Below are positions 278 to 37,316 of a stretch of 37,654 bases of DNA, piece after piece (within the stretch, counting starts at the first letter, position 1; each line of letters opens with the position of its first letter). The stretch is taken from NCBI GenBank assembly GCA_021734685.1, contig JAIPIL010000002.1:1-37654 (forward strand), in the 5' to 3' direction. The notes under the pieces are model-generated. The model searched no databases and had not been told where the DNA came from. It saw only the letters and a list, made by a program, of their open reading frames with translations. The DNA is from Minisyncoccota bacterium (GTDB lineage: Bacteria; Patescibacteriota; Minisyncoccia; Minisyncoccales; PWPS01). The translations under genes and the position numbers were made by a program.

Positions 278-3200
278 ATGCAAAAAATAAAACACTTCGG
301 GAAGAAAAAAGTTCATTTTCCTATTCCTTATCTTTTTAATGTTCAGAAAGAAGCGTGGGAAGATTTTTGGGAAGAAAAACTAAAGACAATTTTTAGAGAA
401 GTTTCTCCTATTCGTGATTATAGCGGAAAACAGTGGGAGATATATTTTTTAGACTATAAACTAGGAAAACCAAAATACAAGAACGGAAAAGAAGCGAAAG
501 AAAACAATGACACCTATGAAGCTCCTTTAAAGATAGAAGTAGAACTTCGTAATCTGAAAACAAAGAAAAGCAAAAAACAAGAGATATTTTTGTGTGATTT
601 TCCGTTAATGACCGAGAAGAAAACATTTATTATTAACGGTGTAGAAAGAGTCGCTATCTCTCAACTTATTCGCTCCCCAGGAGCATTTTTTACGGCACAA
701 AACATAAAAGGAGAAAAGTGTTTTGGAGCAAAGATAGTTCCAAGTCGTGGAACTTGGCTTGAATTTCAAACAGAACCATCAGGATTTATAGGAGTAAAGA
801 TAGATCGTAGAAGAAAAGTTCCCGCAACTACTCTTCTTAAAGCGATCGGACTTCCTAATATGACTTATCCAGGATGGGATAAAGCAACAAACGAAGATGT
901 TTTATCTTTGTTTAAAGATGTTGATAAAGGGGAAGTTAAATTTATAGAAAAAACGCTAGAAAAAGACAGTTCTAAAAACAGAGAAACAGCACTGGTTGAG
1001 ATCTATCGCAGAATGCGCCCAGGAGACATCGTTACTCCCGAAACAGCAAGAGAACTTGTTGAAAATACATTTTTTAACTTTGGAAGATACGACATCTCAG
1101 AAGTTGGAAGATGGAAGATGTGGCAACGCTTACCAGAGTTAAAAGAAAAACTACCTAAAGGAAAAGAAAACAAAAAAATAGGAGTTGATGATCGCCTTCT
1201 TTATCCTGAAGATATTGTTGCAGTTTTAAGAGAAGTGGTCAGAATGAATAACGACAATCAAACTCACGAAGATGAGATAGATCATCTTGGAAACCGAAGA
1301 GTGAGACCATTTACAGAGATGCTTGAAAGCTCTCTTCGCTTAGGTCTTGCTAGGATGGAAAGAAACATTAAAGACAGAATTTCAACATCTGATACAGCTG
1401 GATTAAACCCAGCAAAACTAATCAACTCTCGTCCTTTTGCAACAGCAGTGCAAAGATTTTTCTCCTCTTCCCAGATATCACAGTTTATGGATTGTAATAA
1501 TCCTCTTTCTGAATCAGAACACAAAAGAAGACTAACATCCACCGGACCAGGGGGATTAAAAAGAGAAAGAGCAGGATTGGAAGCTCGTGATGTGCAGGCA
1601 TCTCACTACGGAAGAATATGTCCAATTCAAACTCCAGAAGGTCCAAATGTGGGACTGGTTAGTCACTTTGCGTTATATTCCAGAATGAATCACTACGGAT
1701 TTCTTGAAACACCTTACTTTAAAGTTGAGAAAACAAGAGTGACCTCAGAAGTTGTTTATCTTAACGCTCACGAAGAAGAAAAATATATTATTGCTCACGG
1801 AGGAGTTGAACTTAACGATAGTAAAAAAATAATTTCTGACAAAGTTGAAGGAAGATTAAAAGGAAAACCAGGAATTTTCAATAAAGAAGAGATACAACTA
1901 ATTGATGTTTCTGCGGAGCAGTTGATTTCTGTTGCAGCTTCAATGATTCCTTTTCTTCAAAACGACGATGCAAACAGAGCGTTGATGGGATCTAATATGC
2001 AACGCCAAGCAGTCCCTCTTCTTAATCCCCAAGCACCACTTGTCTCAACAGGAACAGAAGAGAAGATTGCTACTGACTCAGGACATGTAATTGTCAACGA
2101 GAAAGAAGGAGAAGTTGTTGAGATTGATGGAAGACACATCGTTGTTAAAAGTGGAAAAGAAAAGAAAGAATACTTTTTGGAAACATACTCTGAAACAAAC
2201 CAATATACTTGTTTTCACCAAAGACCAGTTGTAAAGAAAGGGGAAAAAGTTAAAAAAGGACAGTTTTTAACAGACGGAGGAGCAGTTGAAAACGGAAGAG
2301 TTGCTCTCGGACAGAATGTTCTAGTTGCCTTTATGCCGTGGAGAGGAAAAAACTTTGAAGATGCTGTTATCCTTTCAGAAAGACTTGTTAAAGATGATGT
2401 TTACACTTCTCTTCATATTGAAAGTTTTACTTGTGATGTAAGAGAAACAAAACTTGGGCCAGAAATAACAACAGCAGATATTCCTAATGTTTCTGAAGTT
2501 AAACTGAAAGATCTTGACGAAGATGGAATTATAAGAGTTGGGGCTGAGATAGGTCCTAACGATATTTTAGTTGGAAAGATTTCTCCAAAAGGAAAATCAG
2601 AACTAACAACCGAAGAAAGACTTTTAAAGGCAATTTTTGGAGAAAAAGCAAAAGATGTTAAAGACACCTCGCTCACTGTTGAGCACGGAAAAAAAGGAAG
2701 AGTTATCGCAGTTAAAGTTTTCACCAGAGATGAAGGACACAAGCTTGATCCAGGAGTAATTAAAAGAGTTGAAGTGAAAGTTGCTCAGATGAGAAAGATT
2801 AAAGCAGGAGATAAGCTTGCTGGAAGACACGGAAACAAGGGGGTTATATCACAAATACTTCCTCGTGAAGAGATGCCTTTTCTTGAAGACGGAACACCAG
2901 TTGATATTGTTTTAAATCCACTTTCTGTTGTTTCAAGAATGAACCTCGGACAGATACTTGAAACACATCTTGGATTAGCAGCAAAGAAAAACAACTACAT
3001 CGCAGTAACCCCATCTTTTTCAGGAGCAAGTGTTCAAGACATTGAAGACGAACTTGAAAAATCAGGACTTCCAAGAGATGGAAAGATGACTGTTTATGAT
3101 GGACAAACAGGAAAACCGTTCAAAAGAAGTGTTACTGTTGGTTACATCTATATGCTTAAGTTAGAGCATATGGTAGAAGATAAACTTCATATGCGTTCAA

Positions 3201-3507: not shown

Positions 3508-3594
3508 GTCATTCCCGCGAAAGCGGGAATCCAGTTTTGAAAATTAAGAAATTGAAAATTCATTGAAAATTGAAAATTGCCAAATTGAAAATTT
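3508..3594 (+). repeat. Intergenic repeat mosaic: HP-A hairpin plus TTGAAAA-type array
   Basis: HP-A GTCATTCCCGCGAAAGCGGGAATCCAG at 3508-3534. Array TTTTGAAAATTAAGAAATTGAAAATTCATTGAAAATTGAAAATTGCCAAATTGAAAATTTT at 3535-3594, identical to 9796-9856. Confidence 0.9.
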
Positions 3595-3635: not shown

Positions 3636-6600
3636 ATGCGTGTAGAAGATATTATCGCCATAAAAATAAAACTGGCATCTCCAGACGACATCTTGAAGTG
3701 GTCTTATGGAGAAGTTTTAGAGCCAGAAACAATTAACTACCGCAATCAGAAGCCAGAAAAAGATGGTCTTTTCTGCGAAAAGATATTTGGCCCTGAAAAA
3801 GATTACAAGTGTTACTGTGGAAAGTATCGCAAAGTTAGATTTAAAGGAACTGTTTGTGATCGTTGCGGAGTTGAAGTAACAAAAGCATCGGTCAGAAGAG
3901 AGAGAATGGGACACATTAAACTTGCCTGTCCTATTGCTCACATCTGGTTTTTGCGTGGAATTCCATCAAGAATGGGGCTTGTTTTGGATATTCCGATGAA
4001 AAGATTAGAAGAAGTGGTTTACTTTAGTTCTTACATAATCACTAAAGTTGATGAAGAAAGTAAAAAGAAAGCAGTTAAGGAAATAAACAAAGAGCACAAA
4101 AAGAGAACAAAAGAGATAAATGCTGAATTCAAAGGTGAGGCTCTTGAAGAAGAGTTAGGTAAACTGAAAGAACAGTTTGACAAAGTAAAAGAAGAACTGA
4201 AATCAATCAAGCTTTTACAGATTCATTCAGAAGCAGAGTATCACCGTCTTTCTATGAAGTATGGAGAGATGTTTGAAGCAAAGTCAGGAGCAGAGGCACT
4301 TCGTGAAGTGTTTGAAAAGATTGATGTAGATAGCATAATTGAAGAGCTGAAAAAAGAAAAAGAAAAAACCGCATCGGTTGGAAGAAGAAAAAAAGCAATC
4401 CAAAGACTGAAACTATTTATCAGAATGAAGAAGGCAGGAATTAAGCCCGAGTGGATGTTTGTTACCATTCTTCCCGTTCTTCCTCCTGAGCTAAGACCAA
4501 TAATTCAACTTGATGGGGGAAGGTACGCATCCTCCGATCTAAATGATCTCTACCGAAGAGTTATAAACAGAAACAACCGCTTAAAGTATCTTTTGGAGAT
4601 AGACGCTCCAGAAGTTATTGTTCGTAATGAAAAAAGAATGCTTCAAGAAGCAGTGGATGCTCTTCTTGATAATCAGATGAGAAAGGGGGTTGTCACTCAA
4701 GCATCAACCGGAGGAACTCGTCTCTTGAAGTCGTTAGCTGATATGTTGAAAGGAAAACAAGGAAGATTTCGTCAAAACCTCCTTGGAAAGAGAGTTGACT
4801 ACTCCGGCCGTTCAGTGATTGTAGTCGGACCTAACTTAGAACTGAATCAGTGTGGAATTCCAAAACAGATGGCTCTTGAGATATTTAAACCGTTTGTTAT
4901 ATCAAAAATATTAGAACAAAAACTTGCCTACAATGTCCGAGGAGCGGGAAGATTGATAGAAGAAGGAACCGACGAAGTGTGGGCGATACTTGAAGAAGTT
5001 GTGAAAGGAAAAACGGTTCTTCTGAATCGTGCTCCTACCCTTCACCGTCTTGGAATACAGGCGTTTAAGCCCGTGCTTGTTGAAGGATACGCTCTTAGAA
5101 TTCATCCGTTTGTTTGTGAGGCGTTTAACGCTGACTTTGATGGAGATCAGATGGCGGTTCACCTTCCTCTCTCTGACAGAGCTCAACAAGAAACAAAAGA
5201 ACTGATGCTCTCTTCAAAAAATTTACTAAAGCCAGCAACTGGGCGTCCGGTTGTTTCACCTTCCCAAGATATTGTTCTGGGTTGTTACTTCTTAACAATG
5301 GAAGAAGACGGAGTAAAAGGAGAAGGAAGCTACTTCTCATCTCCTTTTCAAATTGAGAGTGCTTTAGAGTTTGAAAAGATAGATCTTCACGCTAAAGTAA
5401 AAATAAGAATGGATGGAAAAGTGGTTGAAACAACTGCTGGAAGAGTTATCTTTAATAAAGAACTACCAGAAGGAGTACCTTATCAGAACAAAACAATGAA
5501 ATCTCGTGATCTGAAAGGATTAGTTGAGTTTATAATTAGAGAGTATAAAGACAAAGAGCCACACAAGCTTCTTGATAAAATAAAAGATCTTGGTTTTGAG
5601 TATGCAACAACATCTGGTATCTCTTGGGGAATGAGTGATATTGTTGTTCCAAAAGAAAAGAAAGGAATTTTAGAAAAAGCTCAACAAGAGAAAGAGCAAG
5701 TTGAAAAATACTTCAACAAAGGACTTTTCTCCGATGAAGAAAGAAAAGAAAAAGTAATTGAGATCTGGTCAAAAGCAAAAAAACAAGTTGAGGAAAGCAT
5801 TCCAGGTGCTCTTCCTATCGGAGGGTCAGTGTTTATAATCCTTGACTCAGGAGCAAGAGGATCTTGGTCTCAGCCAATCCAGATGTCTGGAATGAAAGGA
5901 TTGGTAGTTAATCCGTCAGGAGATATTATAGAACTTCCGATAAAAAGTTCTTATCACGAGGGATTTCATCCTCTTGAGTACTTTATTTCAACTCACGGAG
6001 CAAGAAAAGGAACTGCTGATACGGCACTTTGTACAGCGCAGGCGGGATACCTTACTCGTCGTCTTATTGATGTTGCTCACGAAGTTATTGTCACTGAAGA
6101 TGATTGTGGCGATACAGAAGGAATTGAAGTGCTTAGAAAAGATGCTGACGACATATATCAAAATATGTTCTTCAAAATTAGCGGAAGAACCGCCTTGGAA
6201 GATATAAAAATAAAAGGAAAAGTTGTTGTTAAGAAAGGAGAAGTTATTGATGCTGAGAAGGCAAAAATAATTGATGAGTCGGGAATTCCTTCTATTAAAA
6301 TAAGATCTGCTTTGAAGTGTAAAACAGTTCAAGGAATATGCTCTAAATGTTACGGATGGGATATGGGAACAAACGAGATGGCAGGAAAAGGTTTCGCCGC
6401 AGGAATTATTGGTGCTCAGGCAATCGGAGAACCGGGAACTCAGCTCACAATGAGAACCTTCCACACTGGAGGAGTTGCTGGCGGTGCTGACATAACCCTT
6501 GGACTTCCTCGTGTTCAAGAGATTTTTGAAAGAAGAGTGCCAAAAGGAAAAGCAGAAATTTCAGATGTTGACGGAAAAGTTGTTGATATAACCGAAAACA

Positions 6601-7259: not shown

Positions 7260-7331
7260 AGCGGGCGATGGGACTCGAACCCACTTCACGACCTTGGAAG
7301 GGTCGGGTAATAGCCATTATACGACGCCCGC
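7260..7331 (-). tRNA. tRNA-Gly (anticodon UCC)
   Basis: The reverse complement GCGGGCG TC GTAT AATGGCTA TTAC C CGACC CTTCCAA GGTCG TGAA GTGGG TTCGAGT CCCAT CGCCCGC T folds as a 72-nt cloverleaf. GG in the D-loop, TTCGA T-loop, discriminator U, CCA not encoded. Confidence 0.92.
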
Positions 7332-7383: not shown

Positions 7384-7644
7384 CGCTTCCAAAGGAAGCG
7401 CGCGAAACAACGCAAAACAAAAACGCAAAACAACGCAAAACTTCTTCCACCGTCATTGCGAGGAGTGAAACGACGTGGCAATCCCATCATCCTTGCAGAA
7501 ACCATGAGATTCTTCGCTCCGCTCAGAATGACGGCGGAGTGTCATTCCCACCACCCCTGTCATTCCCGCGAAAGCGGGAATCCAGTTTAGTGTAGTTTCG
7601 CGTCCCAGTTTCGCGTCGTTTCGCGCAAACCACAAAGTGGTTTG
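7384..7644 (+). repeat. Composite palindromic repeat mosaic
   Basis: Hairpin CGCTTCC-AAA-GGAAGCG 7384-7400; ACGCAAAACA-type array 7398-7441; PAL-B 7452-7532; half-site GTCATTCCC 7541-7549; HP-A 7559-7585; inverted (GTTTCGCG) array 7586-7626; hairpin CAAACCAC-AAA-GTGGTTTG 7626-7644. Confidence 0.9.
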
Positions 7645-9022: not shown

Positions 9023-9214
9023 GCGCGCGAAACAACGCAAAACAAAAACGCGAAACTACGCAAAACTAGATTCCCGCTTTCACGGGAATGACAAACCCAT
9101 GTCCAACCCGGGGTTGGACATCAGTGAAACTCCGTCATTGCGAGGAGCGAAGCGACGTGGCAATCCCATTATCCTTGCAGCATCCATGAGATTCTTCGCT
9201 TCGCTCAGAATGAC
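9023..9214 (+). repeat. Repeat mosaic with an inverted HP-A copy
   Basis: ACGCAAAACA-type array 9023-9066; inverted HP-A CTAGATTCCCGCTTTCACGGGAATGAC 9066-9092; hairpin ATGTCCAA-CCCGGGG-TTGGACAT 9099-9121; PAL-B 9134-9214. Confidence 0.9.
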
Positions 9215-9592: not shown

Positions 9593-9856
9593 CAAACCAC
9601 TTCGTGATTTGCGCGAAACAACGCAAAACAAAAATGCAAAACAACGCAAAACTTTTTCCACCGTCATTGCGAGGAGCGAAGCGACGTGGCAATCCCATTA
9701 TCTTTGCAGGAACTATGAGATTCTTCGCTTCGCTCAGAATGACGGTGAAGTATCATCTCCCCTCCCTCGTCATTCCCGCGAACGCGGGAATCCAGTTTTG
9801 AAAATTAAGAAATTGAAAATTCATTGAAAATTGAAAATTGCCAAATTGAAAATTTT
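9593..9856 (+). repeat. Composite repeat mosaic
   Basis: ACGCAAAACA-type array about 9610-9655; PAL-B 9663-9743; HP-A with GAAC loop 9769-9795; TTGAAAA-type array 9796-9856. Confidence 0.9.
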
Positions 9857-11691: not shown

Positions 11692-11770
11692 CATTTGACT
11701 TCTTGTTATTCCCGCCCACCCCTGTCATTCCCGCCCTCCCTTGTCATTCCCAGCTTGACTGGGAATCCAG
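11671..11770 (+). repeat. Repeat mosaic
   Basis: TTGACAA array 11671-11702 (contains the murE stop); half-sites GTTATTCCC 11705, GTCATTCCC 11724; HP-A CAG/CTTGA variant 11743-11770. Spacing 19 nt. Confidence 0.9.
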
Positions 11771-12751: not shown

Positions 12752-12915
12752 GTCATTGCGAGGAGCGAAGCGACGTGGCAATCCCTTGAACCCCCCCGTC
12801 ATTCCCGCCCTCCCCCGTCATTCCCAACTTGATTGGGAATCCAGTTTTGAATTTTGAATTTAGTATTTTGAATTTATTTAGAATTTGGTGCTTAGAATTT
12901 AGAATTTATTTTTTT
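12752..12915 (+). repeat. Repeat mosaic between convergent genes
   Basis: Single PAL-B arm GTCATTGCGAGGAGCGAAGCGACGTGGCAATCCC 12752-12785; half-site 12798-12806; HP-A CAA/CTTGA/TTG variant 12817-12844; TTTGAAT/TTAGAAT array 12845-12915 overlapping the Elp3 stop. Confidence 0.9.
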
Positions 12916-15066: not shown

Positions 15067-15284
15067 GCATTTGACATTTGACATTTGACTGTCATTCTGA
15101 GCGAAGCGAAGAATCCCATCATCTTTGCAGTCCACGAGAGATTGCCACGGGCTAAAGCCCTCGCAATGACGATGGAGTGTCACTCCCACATTCTTTGTCA
15201 TTCCCGCGAAAGCGGGAATCCAGTTTTGAAAATTAAAAAATTGAAAATTCATTGAAAATTGTCAAATTGAAAATTGAAAATTTT
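15067..15284 (+). repeat. Composite repeat mosaic
   Basis: TTGACAT array 15067-15089; PAL-B with swapped arm types 15091-15170; degenerate half-site 15178-15186; HP-A 15197-15223; TTGAAAA array 15224-15284. Confidence 0.9.
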
Positions 15285-15717: not shown

Positions 15718-15823
15718 CAATTAACAATTGACCTTTGACACATCACTGTCATTCCCACCCATCTGTCATTCCCGCGAAAGCGGGAATCCAGTCAAAAGTC
15801 ACATGTCAACTGTCAAATGTCAC
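15707..15823 (+). repeat. Repeat mosaic with complementary TGAC/GTCA arms
   Basis: GTGACAATTGACAATTAACAATTGACCTTTGACAC 15707-15741; half-site 15748-15756; HP-A 15765-15791; inverted array GTCAAAAGTCACATGTCAACTGTCAAATGTCAC 15791-15823. Confidence 0.9.
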
Positions 15824-16122: not shown

Positions 16123-16471
16123 GGGGATGCACGTTTCGACAAAATCTCATAGGAAAATATTGCAAGCCGAGCACAATCTCGTAAATCTTGACTTTCACAA
16201 TAAGTGCCAACTTATTTAAAGAAGAACCTGCATTGGCATTAGCTTAAACGCAGGCGTTCCCTTCCTGATTTCTCATAGGGGAGAGTGAATGTCATAAATG
16301 AGGATATGAGATTAAAATTTGAACTTTGTTTTAATCTTGAAAAAAATAAAGTTCGGGAGTAGAAAAATTTTTTCCGATTTAATTTTCTTACTTCTTTAAC
16401 CCCCAATCGGAATAAGCTTGTAGATGTATTTTTCTTGACTTTTGGACGGGAGTTCAATCTCCCCATCTCCA
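16123..16471 (+). ncRNA. ssrA: tmRNA (transfer-messenger RNA)
   Basis: 5' GGGGATGCACGTTTCGAC...GCAAGCCGAG (E. coli has GGGGCUG..UUCGAC..GCAUGCCGAG). 3' GGACGGGAGTTCAATCTCCC-CATCTCC-A (E. coli has GGACGCGGGUUCAACUCCCGCCAGCUCCA). The acceptor GGGGATG/CATCTCC has a G3-U70 pair. Tag ORF 16206-16247 is GCC AAC ... GCT TAA, giving ANLFKEEPALALA. CCA not encoded. Confidence 0.88.
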
Positions 16472-16488
16472 CATAACTTATATAAAAT

Positions 16489-18326: not shown

Positions 18327-18556
18327 GTTTCCAAAGGAAACACGCAAAACAACGCGAAACTTTTCCCTCCGTCATTCTGAAGGAGGGAAACGACTGAAGA
18401 ATCCCATCACCTCTGCAATCACCATGAGATTCTTCACTTCACTACGCTCCGTTCAGAATGACAGTGGGGTATCATTCCCACCCCCCCTGTCATTCCCGCA
18501 AAAGCGGGAATCCAGTCAATAGTCAAAAGTCACATGTCAAATGTCAATTGTCAACC
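18327..18556 (+). repeat. Composite repeat mosaic in the divergent smpB/argS spacer
   Basis: Hairpin GTTTCC-AAA-GGAAAC 18327-18341; ACGCAAAAC array 18342-18360; PAL-B (92 nt) 18371-18462; degenerate half-site 18471-18479; HP-A with AAAA loop 18489-18515; GTCAA array 18515-18556. Confidence 0.9.
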
Positions 18557-20256: not shown

Positions 20257-20422
20257 GTCATTCTGAGCGAAGCGAAGAATCCCATCATCTTTGCAAAAAC
20301 CATGAGATTCTTCACTTCACTTTGTTCCGTTCAGAATGACGGTGGAATGTCATTCCCAGCTTGACTGGGAATCCAGAAATCAGCGTTTTCAAAATTCAAA
20401 ATTCGTAATTCAAAATTAAACC
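20257..20422 (+). repeat. Composite repeat mosaic
   Basis: PAL-B 20257-20340; HP-A CAG/CTTGA variant 20349-20376; AAAATTC array running up to the ileS ATG (20377-20422). Confidence 0.9.
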
Positions 20423-23290: not shown

Positions 23291-23441
23291 CATGCAACAT
23301 GTTACTCTCTCTGGATTCCCAGTCAAGCTGGGGATGACAAAGAGGTGTCATTCCCGCCCCACCTGTCATTCCCGCGAAAGCGGGAATCCAGAAATCCGTG
23401 TTCATCAGTGTTCACATCCGCGTAAATCCGCGTGTTTAATC
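23273..23441 (+). repeat. Repeat mosaic with a head-to-head HP-A doublet
   Basis: TTGACAA array 23273-23305; inverted HP-A CTGGATTCCCAGTCAAGCTGGGGATGAC 23311-23338; half-site 23347-23355; forward HP-A 23365-23391; CCGTGTTCA-type array 23392-23441. Confidence 0.9.
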
Positions 23442-24102: not shown

Positions 24103-24423
24103 AAATAATTTTCAATTTGGCAATTTTCAATTTTCAATGAATGACCAAATGACCAAATGACCAAAACAACCATTTCTGTCATTCTGAAGGAGTGAAACGA
24201 CTGAAGAATCCCATCATTCTTGTAAAAACCATGAGATTCTTCACTACGCTACGCTTCGTTCAGAATGACGGTGGGGTGGCTCTCACGCCCCCTGTCATTC
24301 CCACCCCCACCTGTCATTCCCGCTCCCCCTCTTGTCATTCCCGCGAAAGCGGGAATCCAGTTTTGAAAATTAAAAAATTGAAAATTCATTGAAAATTGCC
24401 AAATTGAAAATTGAAAATTTTAG
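24103..24423 (+). repeat. 321-nt composite palindromic mosaic
   Basis: Inverted TTGAAAA array plus ATGACCAA x3 24103-24177; PAL-B (92 nt) 24178-24269; half-sites 24294 and 24313; HP-A 24334-24360; TTGAAAA array 24361-24423. Confidence 0.9.
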
Positions 24424-24842: not shown

Positions 24843-24986
24843 TGACAATTGACATGTGACATGTGACTGTCATTCCCGCCCCCACTTGTCATTCCCAGCT
24901 TGACTGGGAATCCAGTTTGTAATTTTGAACATTGTAATTTGTAATTTATTTGGAATTTGTAATTTAGAATTTGTAATTTAATATCT
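24842..24986 (+). repeat. Repeat mosaic
   Basis: GTGACA array 24842-24867; half-site 24869-24877; HP-A CAG variant 24888-24915; TTTGTAA array 24916-24986 running up to the next ATG. Confidence 0.9.
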
Positions 24987-26600: not shown

Positions 26601-26809
26601 TTTTCAATTTCAAACCCCCGTCATTCTGAAGGAGTGAAACGACTGAAGAATCCCATCATTCTTGTAAAAGCCATGAGATTCTTCGCTTCGCTCAGAATGA
26701 CGATGGAGTGTCATTGCCGCCCCCCCCCACTTGTCATTCCCAGCTTGACTGGGAATCCAGTCATCCGTGTTCATCCGTGTTCACATCCGTGTAAATCCGT
26801 GTGTTTAAT
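26601..26809 (+). repeat. Composite repeat mosaic
   Basis: Short inverted TTGAAAA remnant 26601-26614; PAL-B 26620-26701; degenerate half-site 26710-26718; HP-A CAG variant 26733-26760; CCGTGTTCA array 26761-26809. Confidence 0.9.
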
Positions 26810-28067: not shown

Positions 28068-28380
28068 ACGAAGCGAAGCGTAGTGAAGAATCCCAACGAG
28101 AATTTTCAATTTTCAATTTGACAATTTTCAATAAATGACCAAATTTCCAAATGATTTAATTTTAAAACAACCATCTGTCATTCTGAAGGAGTGAAACGAC
28201 TGAAGAATCCCATCATCCTTGCAGAAACCATGAGATTCTTCGCTTCGCTCAGAATGACGGCGGAGTGCCATTCTCACCCCCTCCCTGTCATTCCCGCGAA
28301 AGCGGGAATCCAGAAACCAGTTTTGAAAATTAAAAAATTGAAAATTCATTGAAAATTGAAAATTGCCAAATTGAAAATTA
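28058..28380 (+). repeat. Composite palindromic mosaic
   Basis: Single PAL-B arm GTCATTCTGAACGAAGCGAAGCGTAGTGAAGAATCCC 28058-28094; inverted TTGAAAA array plus ATGACCAA 28098-28176; PAL-B 28177-28258; HP-A 28287-28313; TTGAAAA array 28321-28380. Confidence 0.9.
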
Positions 28381-28423
28381 AAACAAATTTGTCATTTCAA
28401 ATTTTTTATATATAATAAAAACA

Positions 28424-29440: not shown

Positions 29441-29581
29441 CAAAAATTTTCAATTTGGCAATTTTCAATTTTCAATAAATTTTCAAATGACCAAATTTCC
29501 AAACAATAAAAACAATTCCCAGCGCCTCAATTGTCATTCCCAGCGTCTCAATTGTCATTCCCAGCTTGACTGGGAATCCAG
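29441..29581 (+). repeat. Repeat mosaic forming the left flank of the GIY-YIG gene
   Basis: Inverted TTGAAAA array plus ATGACCAA 29441-29513; two ATTCCCAGCG(C/T)CTCAATTGTC units 29514-29553; HP-A CAG variant 29554-29581. Confidence 0.9.
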
Positions 29582-29894
29582 TAAACCGTCACCATGAAAA
29601 CATACTACGTTTACATTATGGCAAGCAAAAGAAACGGCACCCTTTATATCGGAGTAACCAATGACTTGGAAAGAAGAATATACGAACACAAAAATAATAT
29701 TATAAAAGGATTCACAGAAAAATATAAAGTTCATTATCTTGTATATTACGAAGAAACAAGTGATATAAAAACAGCAATAGAAAGAGAAAAACAAATAAAA
29801 AAATGGAACAGAAAATGGAAGTTAGAATTAATTGAAAAAGAAAATAAAGAGTGGGTAGATTTAACTACTGGATTCCCGCTTTCGCGGGAATGAC
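29554..29894 (+). mobile_element. Candidate REPtron-like cassette: GIY-YIG gene between inverted HP-A hairpins
   Basis: Left HP-A (forward) 29554-29581, right HP-A (inverted, exact consensus) 29868-29894. 341 bp in total. Confidence 0.4.
29594..29893 (+). CDS. Small stand-alone GIY-YIG nuclease family protein (COG2827/UPF0213-like)
   Basis: 99 aa. YYVYIMASKRNGTLYIGVTNDLERRIYEH...KQIKKWNRKWK is the GIY...YIG...R...E core. The last 8 codons and the TGA lie in an inverted HP-A copy. Confidence 0.9.
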   Translation: MKTYYVYIMASKRNGTLYIGVTNDLERRIYEHKNNIIKGFTEKYKVHYLVYYEETSDIKTAIEREKQIKKWNRKWKLELIEKENKEWVDLTTGFPLSRE

Positions 29895-29931
29895 AAAAAG
29901 GTTTTTAAAATTCGTAATTCAAAATTAACTC

Positions 29932-31383
29932 ATGTTCATCACCACCAGCATCGCATACACCAACGCCCCGCCTCACATCGGGTTTGCTTTGGAACTTCTT
30001 CAGGCCGATGTTATTGCAAGATACAACCGTCAACAAAATGTTGCCGTTTATTTTTTAACTGGAACCGATGAGCACGGCCACAAGATTGCAAAGAAAGCGG
30101 AAGAAGAAGGAAAAACCCCCCAACAGTTTGTTGACGAGATAACTGAAAAATACAAACTACTAACTGAAAAACTAAACATCTCCAACGATGACTTTATCAG
30201 AACTACCGATCAAGAAAAACACTGGAAAGGAGTTTACAAGATGTGGAACAAGTTAAAAGAAAGTGGAGACATCTACAAAAAAAAGTATGAAGGACTATAC
30301 TGCGTCGGATGCGAAGCGTTCAAAAGAGAAAAAGAACTGGTTGACGGAAAGTGCCCTGACCACAACAAAGAACCAGAGTTAGTAAAGGAAGAGAACTACT
30401 TCTTCCGTCTCTCAAAATACGAAACCGAGATAAAAAAACTAATCCAAGGTGACACCTTGGAAGTTGTTCCCGAGGGAAGAAAGAAAGAGATTCTTAACTT
30501 TTTAGAGGAAGGATTGGAAGACATAAGTGTTTCAAGAAGCACAAAAATTTTGAAGTGGGGGATTCCCGTTCCTGATGATGACTCACAAGTTCTTTATGTC
30601 TGGGTTGACGCTCTAACAAACTACATCTCTGCCCTCGGATACGGAGAAAACGAAGAAAAACTTGAAAAGTACTGGCCAGCCGACATCCACTTCATCGGAA
30701 AAGACATCTTAAGATTTCACGCGGTAATCTGGATCGGAATGCTTCTTTCTGCAGGATTAAAAATTCCAAAGAAGATACTATCACACGGACACATAACCTC
30801 ACAAGGAAAAAAGATGTCAAAAACACTGGGAAATGTAGTTGACCCTTTCACTATAATAGAAAAGTACGGAGTAGATCCCGTCCGTTACTACCTCTTATCA
30901 GAAATCCCAACATTATCTGATGGAGATTTTTCAGAAAGCCGTTTCATAGAAAAATACAACGCCGACCTAGCCGACGGAGTAGGAAACCTAACCTCCCGAA
31001 TAATCTCCCTAGCCAAAAAACACCCCCCCGTCATTCTGAACGAAGCGAAGCGTAGTGAAGAATCCCATTATCCTTGCAAAAACCATGAGCTTATAGAGGA
31101 GCAGTACCACCAACTAATGAAAGAACTCAAAATCAGCGAAGCCATTGAAAAAATCTGGGAAGTAATCCACCTAACCGACAAGTACATAGAAGAAGAAAAA
31201 CCATGGGAAAAAAAAGAAAACTCCAAACAAGTAGTTGAAACCCTCTTCTCAACAATAAACAAAATCGCAGAAATGCTAACCCCAATCCTCCCCGAAACAG
31301 CCCAAAAAATAAAAAAACAAACAGAAACAAAACAAAAAACCGTATTATTCCCAAAACAACCATCTGTCATTCTGAAGGAGTGA
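29932..31383 (+). CDS. metG: Methionine--tRNA ligase (short form)
   Basis: 483 aa. N-terminal HIGH-type PPHIGF, KMSKTLGN, Cys knuckle CVGCEAF...CPDH. Carries an in-frame repeat insertion and a repeat-derived C-terminus. Confidence 0.95.
   Translation: MFITTSIAYTNAPPHIGFALELLQADVIARYNRQQNVAVYFLTGTDEHGHKIAKKAEEEGKTPQQFVDEITEKYKLLTEKLNISNDDFIRTTDQEKHWKGVYKMWNKLKESGDIYKKKYEGLYCVGCEAFKREKELVDGKCPDHNKEPELVKEENYFFRLSKYETEIKKLIQGDTLEVVPEGRKKEILNFLEEGLEDISVSRSTKILKWGIPVPDDDSQVLYVWVDALTNYISALGYGENEEKLEKYWPADIHFIGKDILRFHAVIWIGMLLSAGLKIPKKILSHGHITSQGKKMSKTLGNVVDPFTIIEKYGVDPVRYYLLSEIPTLSDGDFSESRFIEKYNADLADGVGNLTSRIISLAKKHPPVILNEAKRSEESHYPCKNHELIEEQYHQLMKELKISEAIEKIWEVIHLTDKYIEEEKPWEKKENSKQVVETLFSTINKIAEMLTPILPETAQKIKKQTETKQKTVLFPKQPSVILKE
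31030..31089 (+). repeat. PAL-B left arm plus loop inserted in frame inside metG
   Basis: GTCATTCTGAACGAAGCGAAGCGTAGTGAAGAATCCCATTATCCTTGCAAAAACCATGAG is 60 nt, or 20 codons (VILNEAKRSEESHYPCKNHE). The arm is identical to 28058-28094. Confidence 0.85.
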
Positions 31384-31570
31384 AACGACTGAAGAATCCC
31401 ATCATCCTTGCAGAAACCATGAGATTCTTCGCTCCGCTCAGAATGACGGCGGAGTGTCACTCCCACCCCCCCCTGTCATTCCCGCGAAAGCGGGAATCCA
31501 GTTTGTAATTTTGGACATTGTAATTTGTAATTTATTTGGAATTTGTAATTTTGAATTTGTAATTTAAATT
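31366..31570 (+). repeat. Composite repeat mosaic
   Basis: PAL-B 31366-31447 (contains the metG stop at 31381-31383); degenerate half-site 31456-31464; HP-A 31475-31501; TTTGTAA array 31502-31570. Confidence 0.9.
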
Positions 31571-31598
31571 TTGACTTTTCAAAATTATTAAATATACT
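31571..31598 (+). promoter_or_regulatory. Candidate promoter of pilB
   Basis: TTGACT 31571-31576, 16-nt spacer, TATACT 31593-31598. It shares AAATATACTTAAAAT with the pilin promoter at 34893-34908. Confidence 0.45.
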
Positions 31599-31638
31599 TA
31601 AAATTAAACAATAAAATTATTTATAAAACTCGCATCAT

Positions 31639-33339: not shown

Positions 33340-33604
33340 CAAAAATTTTCAATTTTCAATTTGACAATTTTCAATGAATGACCAAATTTCCAAATGACCA
33401 AAACAACCATTCCTGTCATTCTGAAGGAGCGAAGCGACTGAAGAATCCCATCATCCTTGCAGAAACCATGAGATTCTTCGCTCCGCTCAGAATGACGGCG
33501 GAGTGTCATTCCCACCCCCTCACCTGTCATTCCCGCGAAAGCGGGAATCCAGAAACCAGTTTTGAAAATTAGAAAATTGAAAATTGCCAAATTGAAAATT
33601 AAAC
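33340..33604 (+). repeat. 265-nt composite palindromic mosaic between pilB and pilC
   Basis: Inverted TTGAAAA array plus ATGACCAA 33340-33414; PAL-B 33415-33496; half-site 33505-33513; HP-A 33526-33552; TTGAAAA array 33553-33604. Confidence 0.9.
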
Positions 33605-33608
33605 ATCC

Positions 33609-34665: not shown

Positions 34666-34870
34666 GTCATTCTGAGCGAAGCGAAGAATCCCATCGTAAA
34701 AGCACCAAATCCAAAATCACAAATCCCAAATAAGCACCAATAACCAAAACCCAAAATCCAAAACAACAATTTGTCATTCCCAGCTTGACTGGGAATCCAG
34801 TTTGTAATTTTGAAAATTTGAATTTGTAATTTATTTGTAATTTGTAATTTTGAATTTGTAATTTAATTTT
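34666..34870 (+). repeat. Composite repeat mosaic
   Basis: Single PAL-B arm 34666-34692; AAATCC/AAATCAC array 34693-34772; HP-A CAG variant 34773-34800; TTTGTAA array 34801-34870. Confidence 0.9.
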
Positions 34871-34908: not shown

Positions 34909-35334
34909 ATGAGAAGAAATTTCACACAAAAAGGATTCACCACCCCCCGTCATTCTGACACCCCCCGTCATTCTGAGCGAAGCGAAGAATCCCATCAAAA
35001 AAACGCTTTCACTATAATAGAACTCCTCGTAGTAGTAGCAGTAATTGCAATACTCGCTATCTTAATCCTTATCCCTTTACAAAACGCCCGTGAAAACGCA
35101 AGAATAACAAAAGGACTTCACTTCGCAGAACAGATCCACCGCAAAATTATGCTAGAAAATGAAAGCGAATACAAGTTTGATGACGCCACTCCAGGAACTT
35201 GGCTCACCGAAGGAGAAACAGTAACAGACTTCTCAAACAGCGGAAACGACGGAACAGTAGCCGGACAAGTCTATGTCCAAGCAGAAGGAGTCCCAGGAAC
35301 AGAAAACCCAGCAATATACTTCGACGGAAACTAA
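34909..35334 (+). CDS. Type IV pilin-like protein with a repeat-expanded leader, ending at the start of a LamG-type module
   Basis: MRRNFTQKGFT-[TPRHSDTPRHSERSEESHQKNA]-FTIIELLVVVAVIAILA. The bracketed part is encoded by PAL-B arm copies (34949-34959 and 34967-34993). The C-terminus ...SGNDGTVAG...NPAIYFDGN-stop resembles the entry into a LamG domain. Confidence 0.8.
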   Translation: MRRNFTQKGFTTPRHSDTPRHSERSEESHQKNAFTIIELLVVVAVIAILAILILIPLQNARENARITKGLHFAEQIHRKIMLENESEYKFDDATPGTWLTEGETVTDFSNSGNDGTVAGQVYVQAEGVPGTENPAIYFDGN

Positions 35335-35336
35335 AA

Positions 35337-35590
35337 CGCTTCCAAAGGAAGCGCGCGAAACAACGCAAAACCCCCCCCTGTCATTCTGAAGGAGTGAAAC
35401 GACTGAAGAATCCCATCATCCTTGCAGAAACCATGAGATTCTTCGCTTCGCTCAGAATGACAACAGGATGTCATTCCCGCGAAAGCGGGAATCCAGAAAC
35501 CCCGCATCCGTCATTCTGAGCGAAGCGAAGAATCCCGTTTTGAAAATTAGAAAATTCAAAATTGATTCAAAATTCAAAATTCAAAATTAA
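35337..35590 (+). repeat. Composite repeat mosaic
   Basis: Hairpin CGCTTCC-AAA-GGAAGCG 35337-35353 (same as 7384-7400); short ACGCAAAAC array 35351-35371; PAL-B 35380-35461; HP-A 35470-35496; single PAL-B arm 35510-35536; TTGAAAA/TTCAAAA array 35537-35590. Confidence 0.9.
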
Positions 35591-35595
35591 TAATC

Positions 35596-37116: not shown

Positions 37117-37316
37117 GCGCGCGAAACAACGCGAAACTGAAAACGCAAAACAACGCAAAACTTCACCCCCCCCGTCATTCTGAAGGAGTGAAACGACTGA
37201 AGAATCCCATCATCCTTGCAAAAACCATGAGATTCTTCGCTTCGCTCAGAATGACGGCGGAGTGTCATTCCCAGCTTGACTAGGAATCCAGTAATCAGCG
37301 TTCATCAGCGTTTTTC
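37117..37316 (+). repeat. Composite repeat mosaic
   Basis: ACGCAAAAC array 37117-37161; PAL-B 37174-37255; HP-A CAG variant with one stem mismatch (CTAGG) 37264-37291; ATCAGCGTT array 37292-37316. Confidence 0.9.

Follow-up and report, generated by a model that had tools for sequence, protein, structure and literature searches.

A GIY-YIG nuclease gene between inverted hairpins

We analyzed a 37,654-nucleotide stretch of contig JAIPIL010000002.1 (hereafter the window), in which a small GIY-YIG nuclease gene, denoted as ssn, lies between two inverted copies of a hairpin repeat that is dispersed over the whole stretch. The gene (29594-29893, plus strand) is present once in the window and encodes a 99-residue single-domain protein that was assigned to the Ssn family by Pfam and homology. 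Upstream of it, a forward hairpin (29554-29581, plus strand), GTCATTCCCAGCTTGACTGGGAATCCAG, carries a GTC tag in front of an 8-bp stem with a 5-nt loop and is organized as GTC-ATTCCCAG-CTTGA-CTGGGAAT-CCAG. The hairpin is connected to the ATG by a 12-nt leader, TAAACCGTCACC (29582-29593, plus strand), which is conserved in L001 and L111, two of the close relatives described below. Downstream, a reverse hairpin (29868-29894, minus strand) reads CTGGATTCCCGCTTTCGCGGGAATGAC on the plus strand and matches the reverse complement of GTCATTCCCGCGAAAGCGGGAATCCAG, the most frequent hairpin here, at every position. It encodes the end of the protein, ..TGFPLSRE, together with the TGA stop. The forward hairpin is preceded on its tag (5') side by two half copies of 21 nt in tandem, ATTCCCAGCG[C/T]CTCAATTGTC, which consist of the tag and the 5' arm only and occupy 29513-29553 (plus strand). 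Their 10-mer ATTCCCAGCG is found at 29515 and 29536, 21 nt apart, and nowhere else in the window.

When we re-derived these features from the window, the coordinates and sequences of the open reading frame, both hairpins, the 12-nt gap and the half copies given in an earlier sequence-only reading of this DNA were all correct, and its observations that a single gene copy is visible, that the right hairpin encodes the protein end and the stop, and that the half copies are spaced 21 nt apart were reproduced as well. Folded as single-stranded DNA (ssDNA), the forward hairpin reached -7.3 kcal/mol (z=-3.9) and the reverse hairpin -9.0 kcal/mol (z=-5.5). The gene travels with its own hairpin pair, tags outward, as one cassette of ~395 nt (29513-29907, plus strand), which was delimited by comparison with relatives and includes the half copies, the forward hairpin, the gene, the reverse hairpin and a short tail.

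Relation to the Ssn nucleases and their recognition sites

SsnA of Neisseria meningitidis is a 94-residue single-domain GIY-YIG protein (CDD cd10448) whose binding to the NTS repeat CGTCATTCCCGCGMAVGCGGGAATCYRG, a dRS3 extension, is restricted to ssDNA and to the strand given (Chenal et al. 2025, Nat Commun 16:2388; PMC11893778). It cuts a few nucleotides upstream of NTS and requires Y6, Y17 and E64 for cutting, is inactive on double-stranded DNA (dsDNA) and RNA, and does not bind the RNA form; the bases that matter most are the three preceding the palindrome and the C following it (PMC11893778). Three further Ssn homologues, one of them from Wolbachia, act likewise on their own hairpins, so that four members have been studied in all, and in Neisseria SsnA reduces transformation by NTS-bearing DNA (PMC11893778). 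Hairpins were found near 71% of ssn homologues and on both sides of 42%, the NTS-ssnA-NTS layout recurs across phyla, and 81% of genomes with >200 hairpins have an ssn gene (PMC11893778).

The window protein matched the Pfam GIY-YIG domain (PF01541) with E=2.2e-18 over residues 4-77. The second Pfam match, T5orf172, overlaps the GIY-YIG domain and there is no accessory domain, in agreement with the single-domain architecture of the Ssn family. For comparison we used the 94-residue SsnA orthologue of N. gonorrhoeae, not meningococcal SsnA itself, taken from whole N. gonorrhoeae chromosomes that are filed as plasmids in PLSDB. The two proteins align without gaps at 60% identity (51/85 residues), with E-values of 2e-27 by tblastn on the N. 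gonorrhoeae chromosomes and 2e-38 in the pairwise comparison, which lie below the threshold (tblastn/blastp E < 1e-10) by which Chenal et al. 2025 recognize Ssn homologues. Y7, Y18 and E65 of the window protein, its predicted catalytic residues, align with the published catalytic Y6, Y17 and E64 of SsnA and are unchanged across 24 homologues. No Y1_Tnp domain was found in the window protein with Pfam or NCBIfam, and it therefore differs from the HUH enzymes of the IS200/IS605 insertion sequences and of REPtrons, in which repetitive extragenic palindromes (REPs) accompany a REP-associated tyrosine transposase (RAYT).

Di Nocera et al. 2013 (BMC Genomics 14:522; PMC3733652) class the hairpins of this kind as CGTC-tagged REPs, which combine a (C/T)GTC tag with an 8-bp stem that begins with AT, a loop of 4 nt (family 1) or 5 nt (family 2) and a CCA tail. 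They occur mostly as tags-outward pairs, include Neisseria dRS3 and Rickettsia RPE-4 and RPE-6, and 'apparently lack a dedicated transposase' (PMC3733652). The two hairpin subtypes of the window, TGTC-ATTCCCGC-GAAA-GCGGGAAT-CCA and TGTC-ATTCCCAG-CTTGA-CTGGGAAT-CCA, fit the CGTC-1 and CGTC-2 definitions, respectively, and both fold stably as ssDNA. At ssn, the reverse hairpin is of the CGTC-1 / dRS3 type, matches the published SRM pattern for Ssn recognition sites at 29868-29895 and agrees with the NTS consensus at 27/28 positions. The forward hairpin is CGTC-2-like and is not caught by the SRM pattern, failing at the inner stem and the loop while agreeing in tag, outer stem and tail; the GTC tag and the C that follows the stem, positions that Chenal et al. 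2025 found critical, are both retained. The gene is thus flanked on both sides by inverted hairpins of the SRM/NTS type, as is expected of both a REPtron layout and an Ssn-family bracket. As judged from sequence, the reading frame at 29594-29893 very probably encodes an Ssn-family nuclease, an SsnA homologue, whose cognate recognition sites (NTS/SRM, that is, CGTC-tagged REPs) are the dispersed hairpins.

Distribution of the hairpins in the window

Our census counted 23 hairpins of two subtypes, 20 forward and 3 reverse (9066-9092, 23311-23338 and 29868-29894), in line with the earlier claim that 3 of 23 are inverted and that one of these is located at ssn. The orientation bias is significant (20:3, two-sided binomial p = 4.9e-4) and the density is 0.61 per kb. 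Nearly all intergenic regions longer than 100 nt carry a hairpin, at about one per intergenic region, and 20/23 are on the coding strand, co-oriented with the genes; only the copy at the 3' end of ssn overlaps a coding sequence. The 9-mer GTCATTCCC occurs 30 times in forward and 2 times in reverse orientation. The published SRM pattern gave 15 matches in the 37.6 kb of the window compared with 0.11 in dinucleotide-preserving shuffles, and 12 window copies fit the NTS consensus at 27/28 positions, with one copy (9768-9795) fitting at 28/28. The window has ten GTCATTCCC half copies, each of them 17-21 nt to the tag side of a full hairpin. Since the GC skew switches sign within the window, the replication strand could not be assigned, and a link between hairpin orientation and the lagging-strand template is conjectural.

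Conservation of the bracket among homologues

To describe the surroundings of the gene in other genomes, we used 80 usable homologous genes, one genome per species and from at least 15 phyla, and scanned for perfect GTC-tagged hairpins within 120 nt on each side of the gene. Upstream, a forward hairpin was present in 56/80 and a reverse one in 9/80, and at or after the stop a reverse hairpin was present in 57/80 and a forward one in 10/80. The complete bracket, forward upstream and reverse downstream, was found in 46/80, compared with 2/80 for the opposite arrangement; examining homologues for inverted-hairpin flanks, as had been suggested for this locus, thus returned the bracket in more than half of the other species. 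In 15/80 homologues, the reverse hairpin overlaps the stop at an offset identical to that of the window. Many of the C-termini among the closest 120 homologues read ...TGFPLSRE, which is the reverse hairpin read in frame (a recurrent ...GFPLSRE), others read ...DWIPDQVGDD, which is a related hairpin in a different frame, and several mis-called N-termini of homologues are read-through of the forward hairpin (MSFPRKRES, CHSRES).

The left and right arms in a bracket are more alike than randomly paired arms, with 0/2000 shuffles reaching the observed value. Mixed loop lengths, and hence mixed subtypes, occur in 13/46 brackets; the caveat that the two copies flanking the window gene belong to different subfamilies is therefore true but ordinary. 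One homologue locus holds two ssn genes, each with its own hairpin type. Between Ca. Omnitrophus magneticus SKK-01 (JYNY01000221.1) and the window, the only shared stretches are ssn (69% identity) and the hairpins. In Parcubacteria loci from three related genomes (L005-L007), the only two GTC-tagged hairpins in 15-16 kb are the pair that flanks ssn, and in L004-L007 the cassette is present without hairpin spread. Considering that these pairs are the sole hairpins of L005-L007, the bracket belongs to the gene, and the expansion of the hairpins is a separate, genome-specific event.

Presence, absence and exchange of the cassette among relatives

The neighbors of ssn in the window encode an M16 peptidase, an AI-2E transporter, a methionyl-tRNA synthetase (MetRS, gene metG), PilB, PilC, a prepilin, RecO and an isoleucyl-tRNA synthetase, so that type IV pilus genes adjoin ssn. 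The closest homologues of Ssn, and likewise those of MetRS, carry Patescibacteria, Parcubacteria or Wildermuthbacteria annotations, and the host is probably a bacterium of the Patescibacteria/candidate phyla radiation (CPR), a lineage thought to depend on DNA uptake. Close relatives were reached through MetRS homologues, and three close relatives share the gene order of the window, namely L001 and L111, both from one sample (JGI 3300035105), and L110 (GCA_034661095.1). A metagenome scan with the AI-2E transporter for empty sites returned only a relative of 24% identity.

At site A, between the AI-2E transporter gene and metG, ssn is present in the window and in L111, and L110 is without ssn. 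L110 is syntenic with the window over 12.5 kb at 86-89% nucleotide identity; homology ends at 29512 and resumes at 29908, which defines the 395-nt cassette. Its replacement segment in the cassette slot is 367 nt and carries a PF05635 gene, and two different small genes, ssn or PF05635, alternate at site A among close relatives. The interval of L110 equivalent to 29513-29907 (4612-5001) holds a gene of 129 aa for a PF05635 protein (23S rRNA intervening-sequence protein, 23S_rRNA_IVP) and has no flanking hairpins.

At site B, between the PilC (T2SSF) and prepilin genes, L001 has an ssn cassette, whereas the window and L110 have a single forward hairpin only. The cassette segment shared by the window and L001 runs from ~29533 to 29900, that is, from the half copies to a point 6 bases beyond the reverse hairpin; outside it, the two sequences are unrelated. 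Divergence at third codon positions between the window and L001 is 7% in ssn and 21.8% in the adjacent PilC gene (p=4e-4). As L001 and L111 come from the same sample, the population has ssn at both sites A and B, possibly in one genome. The forward hairpin upstream of ssn in L001 (~1369-1420) also has a 24-nt loop insertion, CATGTGCTCGGCTACGACCGGGTA.

Compared with L111, the window is identical at 298/300 positions of ssn (99.3%) and at 165/167 positions of the AI-2E end (98.8%), and identity is 90.7% in metG; this drop past ssn places a recombination breakpoint at the right-hand hairpin. We rejected cassette-specific transfer as a reading of the 99.3% identity in ssn, for the AI-2E end is 98.8% identical too. 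The half copies that lie to the left of ssn in the window also flank it in L001 and L111, and their number differs (window 2, L001 1, L111 5). The reverse hairpin of L111 has two reverse half copies on its tag side.

Duplicated cassettes were found in other genomes. In Ca. Desulfacyla euxinica (L055 and L062, 2862-3378), a 517-nt unit with the ssn cassette occurs twice at 98.6% identity with unrelated flanks. The ends of the unit form a perfect 20-bp terminal inverted repeat, GCATTACCAGTTTGTTAAAG, and it contains a second, nested hairpin pair; no target-site duplication is evident at these copies. Another metagenome-assembled genome (L025) has two ssn copies at 95.5% identity, one of them with a TGA at codon 9 (~3025-3027), which is either a decaying copy or a recoded stop. 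The insertion polymorphism for which the sequence-only reading had proposed to compare strains is thus seen as a cassette that is swapped, absent or extra between close relatives. Altogether, we read the cassette as a unit that changes place or is exchanged from time to time, is usually stable and is often single-copy. Its presence, absence, swap and duplication do not show that the nuclease itself moves it.

Proposed function and alternative explanations

By homology with the four family members studied, the window protein would bind its hairpin only in ssDNA and only on the strand that reads 5'-GTCATTCCC...GGGAATCCAG-3', and its hydrolytic cut, made with Y7, Y18, E65 and Mg2+, would fall in the backbone a few nucleotides to the 5' side of the GTC tag. 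With the tags facing outward, the predicted cuts would fall just outside the cassette, one per strand, and the half-copy arrays may be by-products of cutting and repair, since they are on the tag side where Ssn cuts. The same hairpins appear to have spread to nearly every intergenic region of the window genome, with 20/23 on the coding strand. As to its role in the cell, our best guess, held with less certainty, is a selfish module that has been largely domesticated. Cuts by Ssn at exposed single-stranded hairpins might shape the recombination of incoming or replicating DNA, as those of SsnA do in Neisseria transformation, and such control of the recombination of hairpin-bearing ssDNA, the leading candidate for the role, would fit the pilus genes next door and a lineage thought to need DNA uptake. 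GIY-YIG enzymes as a superfamily hydrolyze DNA, form no covalent intermediate and cannot rejoin strands alone, so that the cassette could move only with the help of host replication, repair or recombination; host repair might occasionally copy the cassette and hairpins to new hairpin sites as a side effect. The earlier proposal that the protein may recognize, cleave or propagate the hairpins thus stands in its first two parts, which were demonstrated for four family members on what is nearly the same hairpin and would extend to the window protein by homology, while propagation is unproven.

Several observations weigh against our interpretation. The CAG/CTTGA hairpin subtype is missed by the published SRM pattern. 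At the gonococcal ssnA locus (NZ_CP119140.1, a 2.17-Mb chromosome), the tags face inward, with one NTS upstream in reverse orientation (1355-1381), the gene at 1489-1773 and another NTS downstream in forward orientation (1777-1803), and the orientation of the bracket is therefore common but not universal. The near-identity of the window and L111 runs into the AI-2E gene, which indicates a recombination tract ending at the cassette. Furthermore, the identical Ssn proteins P0114 and P0093 are each found in one fixed context in at least 10 samples, and the cassette is accordingly usually stable, which leaves a purely selfish reading weak.

An explanation that overlaps with the domesticated-module model and goes further takes Ssn as a transposase and NTS-ssn-NTS as an active insertion sequence that moves by excision and insertion as ssDNA, in the manner of IS200/IS605 or a REPtron, and mobilizes the solo hairpins as non-autonomous passengers; we consider such an autonomous transposon possible, though only tentatively so. 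It would account for the conserved inverted bracket (46/80), for the extra cassette of L001 at a second locus where two relatives have none, for the low third-position divergence of ssn relative to its neighbor, and for the duplicates in several genomes, one with a perfect 20-bp terminal inverted repeat and one decayed by a premature stop. It would also fit the position of all 10 half copies on the tag side, where the enzyme is reported to cut, and the strand bias of the hairpins, which resembles the lagging-strand bias of IS200/IS605. However, a hydrolytic GIY-YIG enzyme provides neither a covalent intermediate nor self-rejoining, the P0114 and P0093 loci are stable across many samples, the cassettes of L004-L007 are without hairpin spread, the L001 polymorphism is explained equally well by recombination between directly repeated hairpins, and no target-site duplication was seen at the Desulfacyla copies. 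In a form that respects this chemistry, the cassette would still be active as a mobile element and would represent a new mechanistic class: a nick in ssDNA beside a hairpin would be followed by host copying or ligation of the cassette, and of solo hairpins, into other hairpin sites. The half-copy arrays, always on the cut side and different in number between strains (2, 1 and 5), would then be scars of repeated cut-and-repair and the 20:3 bias would reflect the strand exposed during replication, a scenario that we regard as possible, though less likely than not.

The hairpins could instead be primarily transcription or RNA elements, such as terminators, mRNA stabilizers or insulators, to which the link with the nuclease is secondary. 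About one hairpin per intergenic region, co-orientation with genes in 20/23 and the restriction of coding overlap to the copy at the ssn 3' end agree with this, and Di Nocera et al. 2013 hold that many REPs are probably transcribed (PMC3733652). However, the terminator scan did not flag the hairpins, because CCAG separates the stem from any T run, and the Rfam scan of the window gave one tmRNA and one tRNA with no match at the hairpins. SsnA does not bind the RNA form (PMC11893778), and an RNA role leaves unexplained why the gene carries its own pair in genomes without other copies. We therefore consider this explanation improbable.

Homing is less probable still and, in our view, very unlikely. 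In this case, Ssn would cleave both DNA strands at hairpin sites that lack the gene, and recombinational repair would then copy the gene into them, in the manner of homing genes of the I-TevI type. GIY-YIG is a classic homing fold, the cassette is present or absent at fixed sites, and the sole NCBIfam match of the window protein is a group I intron endonuclease model, although a weak one (20.7 bits against a cut-off of 56). However, the protein is a bare catalytic domain without a DNA-binding or other extra domain, ssn sits among housekeeping genes and not in an intron or intein, dsDNA is left uncut by family members (PMC11893778), no homologue of the window Ssn protein was found in the phage collection, and most hairpin sites stay empty.

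Finally, chance flanking of an unrelated UPF0213/YhbQ-type housekeeping nuclease, which the hairpin density and the different subtypes of the two copies had made a legitimate caveat, is hardly credible: the bracket outnumbers the opposite arrangement 46 to 2 in 80 homologues with an identical stop-overlap offset in 15/80, L005-L007 have flanking pairs as their sole hairpins, one of just 3 reverse copies in 37.6 kb is fused to the ssn stop codon, and UPF0213 structures match the window protein only weakly (E ~1e-3), which argues against that neighboring family, with no solved Ssn structure found in the structure search.

Individual hairpins, RNA genes and a second repeat family

Beyond the cassette, hairpins of the NTS type lie on the plus strand at 3508-3534 (GCGAAAGC loop region), 7559-7585 (half copy at 7541), 9769-9795 (which, with the preceding C at 9768, fits 28/28 Neisseria NTS positions), 15197-15223, 15765-15791 (half copy at 15748), 18489-18515 (GCAAAAGC variant), 23365-23391 (half copy at 23347), 24334-24360 (two half copies at 24294 and 24313), 28287-28313, 31475-31501, 33526-33552 (half copy at 33505) and 35470-35496; one, an GTGAAAGC variant, is on the minus strand at 9066-9092. 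Those of the CAG/CTTGA type lie on the plus strand at 11743-11770 (half copy at 11724), 20349-20376, 24888-24915 (half copy at 24869), 26733-26760, 34773-34800 and 37264-37291 (one mismatch), together with a CAA/CTTGA/TTG variant at 12817-12844 (half copy at 12798) in which the stem change is compensatory. The copy at 34773-34800 occupies the T2SSF/pilin intergenic region, at the site equivalent to that of the extra ssn cassette of L001. On the minus strand, a CAG/CTTGA-type hairpin with one mismatch at 23311-23338 forms a tags-outward pair with that at 23365.

A transfer-messenger RNA (tmRNA; Rfam RF00023, 116 bits) was located at 16123-16474 (+) and a tRNA at 7260-7331 (-), and several mechanically called open reading frames over both are spurious.

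A second repeat family, denoted as PAL-B, is present in 7 forward and 9 reverse copies in the window and folds weakly as ssDNA (-1.9 kcal/mol). In the prepilin-like reading frame at 34909-35334, a 72-nt in-frame PAL-B insertion (34944-35015), GTCATTCTGAGCGAAGCGAAGAATCCC plus a half copy, lies exactly at the prepilin G/F cleavage site, MRRNFTQKG-[FTTPRHSDTPRHSERSEESHQKNA]-FTIIELL, flanked by a near-perfect 7-nt duplication (TTCACCA / TTCACTA). L001 lacks the insertion, and in L110 the orthologue is likewise uninterrupted, with the same length (117 aa). This is a recent repeat insertion into a coding sequence, with flanks that resemble a target-site duplication. In metG (29932-31383), a PAL-B-like repeat, PPVILNEAKRSEESH, is in frame at 31029-31098, in the MetRS linker between the catalytic and anticodon-binding domains. 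The linker insert measures 70 nt in the window, 214 nt in L111 (1935-2148) and 102 nt in L110 (6143-6244), and that of L111 contains a full NTS hairpin (2074-2096). Within this essential gene, the linker seems to be a hotspot at which repeats insert in frame, and its repeats resemble Rickettsia palindromic elements.

At least 9 intergenic regions share a mosaic of ~170-200 nt, for example at 28068-28423, 31384-31638, 33340-33608, 24103-24410 and 35335-35595. The order of its parts is GTCATTCTGAAGGAGTGAAACGACTGAAGAATCCCATCATCC..., a reverse PAL-B GATTCTTCGCTTCGCTCAGAATGAC, a C-rich half copy, an NTS hairpin and an AT-rich tract of the TTGAAAATT type, the first two together being a unit of ~105 nt with inverted ends.

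Comparison with known systems

A 2025 publication had already described the enzyme family and its hairpin, as well as the layout of the bracket and its likeness to REP/RAYT, and the sequence-only interpretation, while right, is a rediscovery of that system. The published search covered RefSeq reference genomes, and Patescibacteria or CPR are not mentioned in the article (PMC11893778). What is new here is the probable Patescibacteria host, the density of about one hairpin per intergenic region with 20/23 on the gene strand, the strain comparisons of a 395-nt cassette that is swapped, absent or extra, and half copies that are always on the reported cleavage side. This evidence on mobility goes beyond that in the available text of Chenal et al. 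2025. The Ssn/hairpin system would thereby be extended to streamlined CPR genomes, for whose small size this density of about one hairpin in each intergenic region is costly in DNA. The orientation rule of the bracket is clear across at least 15 phyla, and natural before/after comparisons are the kind of evidence needed to decide whether and how ssn cassettes move. If the cassette were an active mobile element, the CGTC REP superfamily, to which dRS3 and some Rickettsia palindromic elements belong, would have its 'missing transposase' in Ssn.

The window system is closest to SsnA/NTS. Both have a single-domain GIY-YIG protein of 94-99 aa with the same Tyr/Tyr/Glu spacing (60% identity), a hairpin that agrees at 27-28/28 positions, a gene between inverted hairpins and hairpin enrichment. 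Unlike in Neisseria, the host is probably of the Patescibacteria/CPR, the tags face outward instead of inward as at the gonococcal locus, and the hairpins are mostly single and co-oriented with genes rather than clustered; in addition, the CAG/CTTGA subtype escapes the SRM pattern and the stop codon lies inside a hairpin. With the CGTC REPs of Di Nocera et al. 2013, the window hairpins share the tag, stem, loop, CCA tail, intergenic location and tags-outward pairs, whereas in the window an enzyme gene lies inside a hairpin pair and single copies outnumber pairs. That survey covered five phyla, none of them CPR, to which the window host probably belongs.

In its layout, the cassette also resembles REPtrons and IS200/IS605, in that a nuclease gene lies between inverted copies of a genome-wide hairpin, non-autonomous copies far outnumber the gene, and the Ssn family recognizes a folded ssDNA hairpin and cuts beside it. 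The authors of the SsnA study likewise liken NTS-ssnA-NTS to an insertion sequence and compare it with IS200/IS605 and REP/RAYT (PMC11893778), and the earlier description of a REPtron-like layout with a GIY-YIG enzyme in place of a Y1 HUH transposase was borne out by GIY-YIG being the only domain. In contrast to those elements, Ssn is a hydrolytic GIY-YIG enzyme and not a Y1 HUH one; it forms no covalent 5'-phosphotyrosine intermediate and cannot rejoin strands by itself. The hairpins here carry a GTC tag instead of GTAG, and transposition has never been demonstrated for ssn cassettes. As the cassette has no Y1 HUH transposase, it is an analogue of REPtrons in layout and not a member. The catalytic fold and motifs of Ssn are also those of I-TevI-type homing endonucleases and UPF0213/YhbQ, whereas, unlike the I-TevI type, Ssn has no DNA-binding domain or intron context and its family is reported to be ssDNA-specific.

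The behavior of the cassette among relatives has a further parallel. In Neisseria, 'minimal mobile elements' are gene cassettes exchanged between conserved flanking genes at repeat-rich sites, through transformation and homologous recombination in the flanks. Likewise, either ssn or a PF05635 gene occupies one AI-2E/metG slot in the genomes compared here, with a breakpoint at a hairpin.

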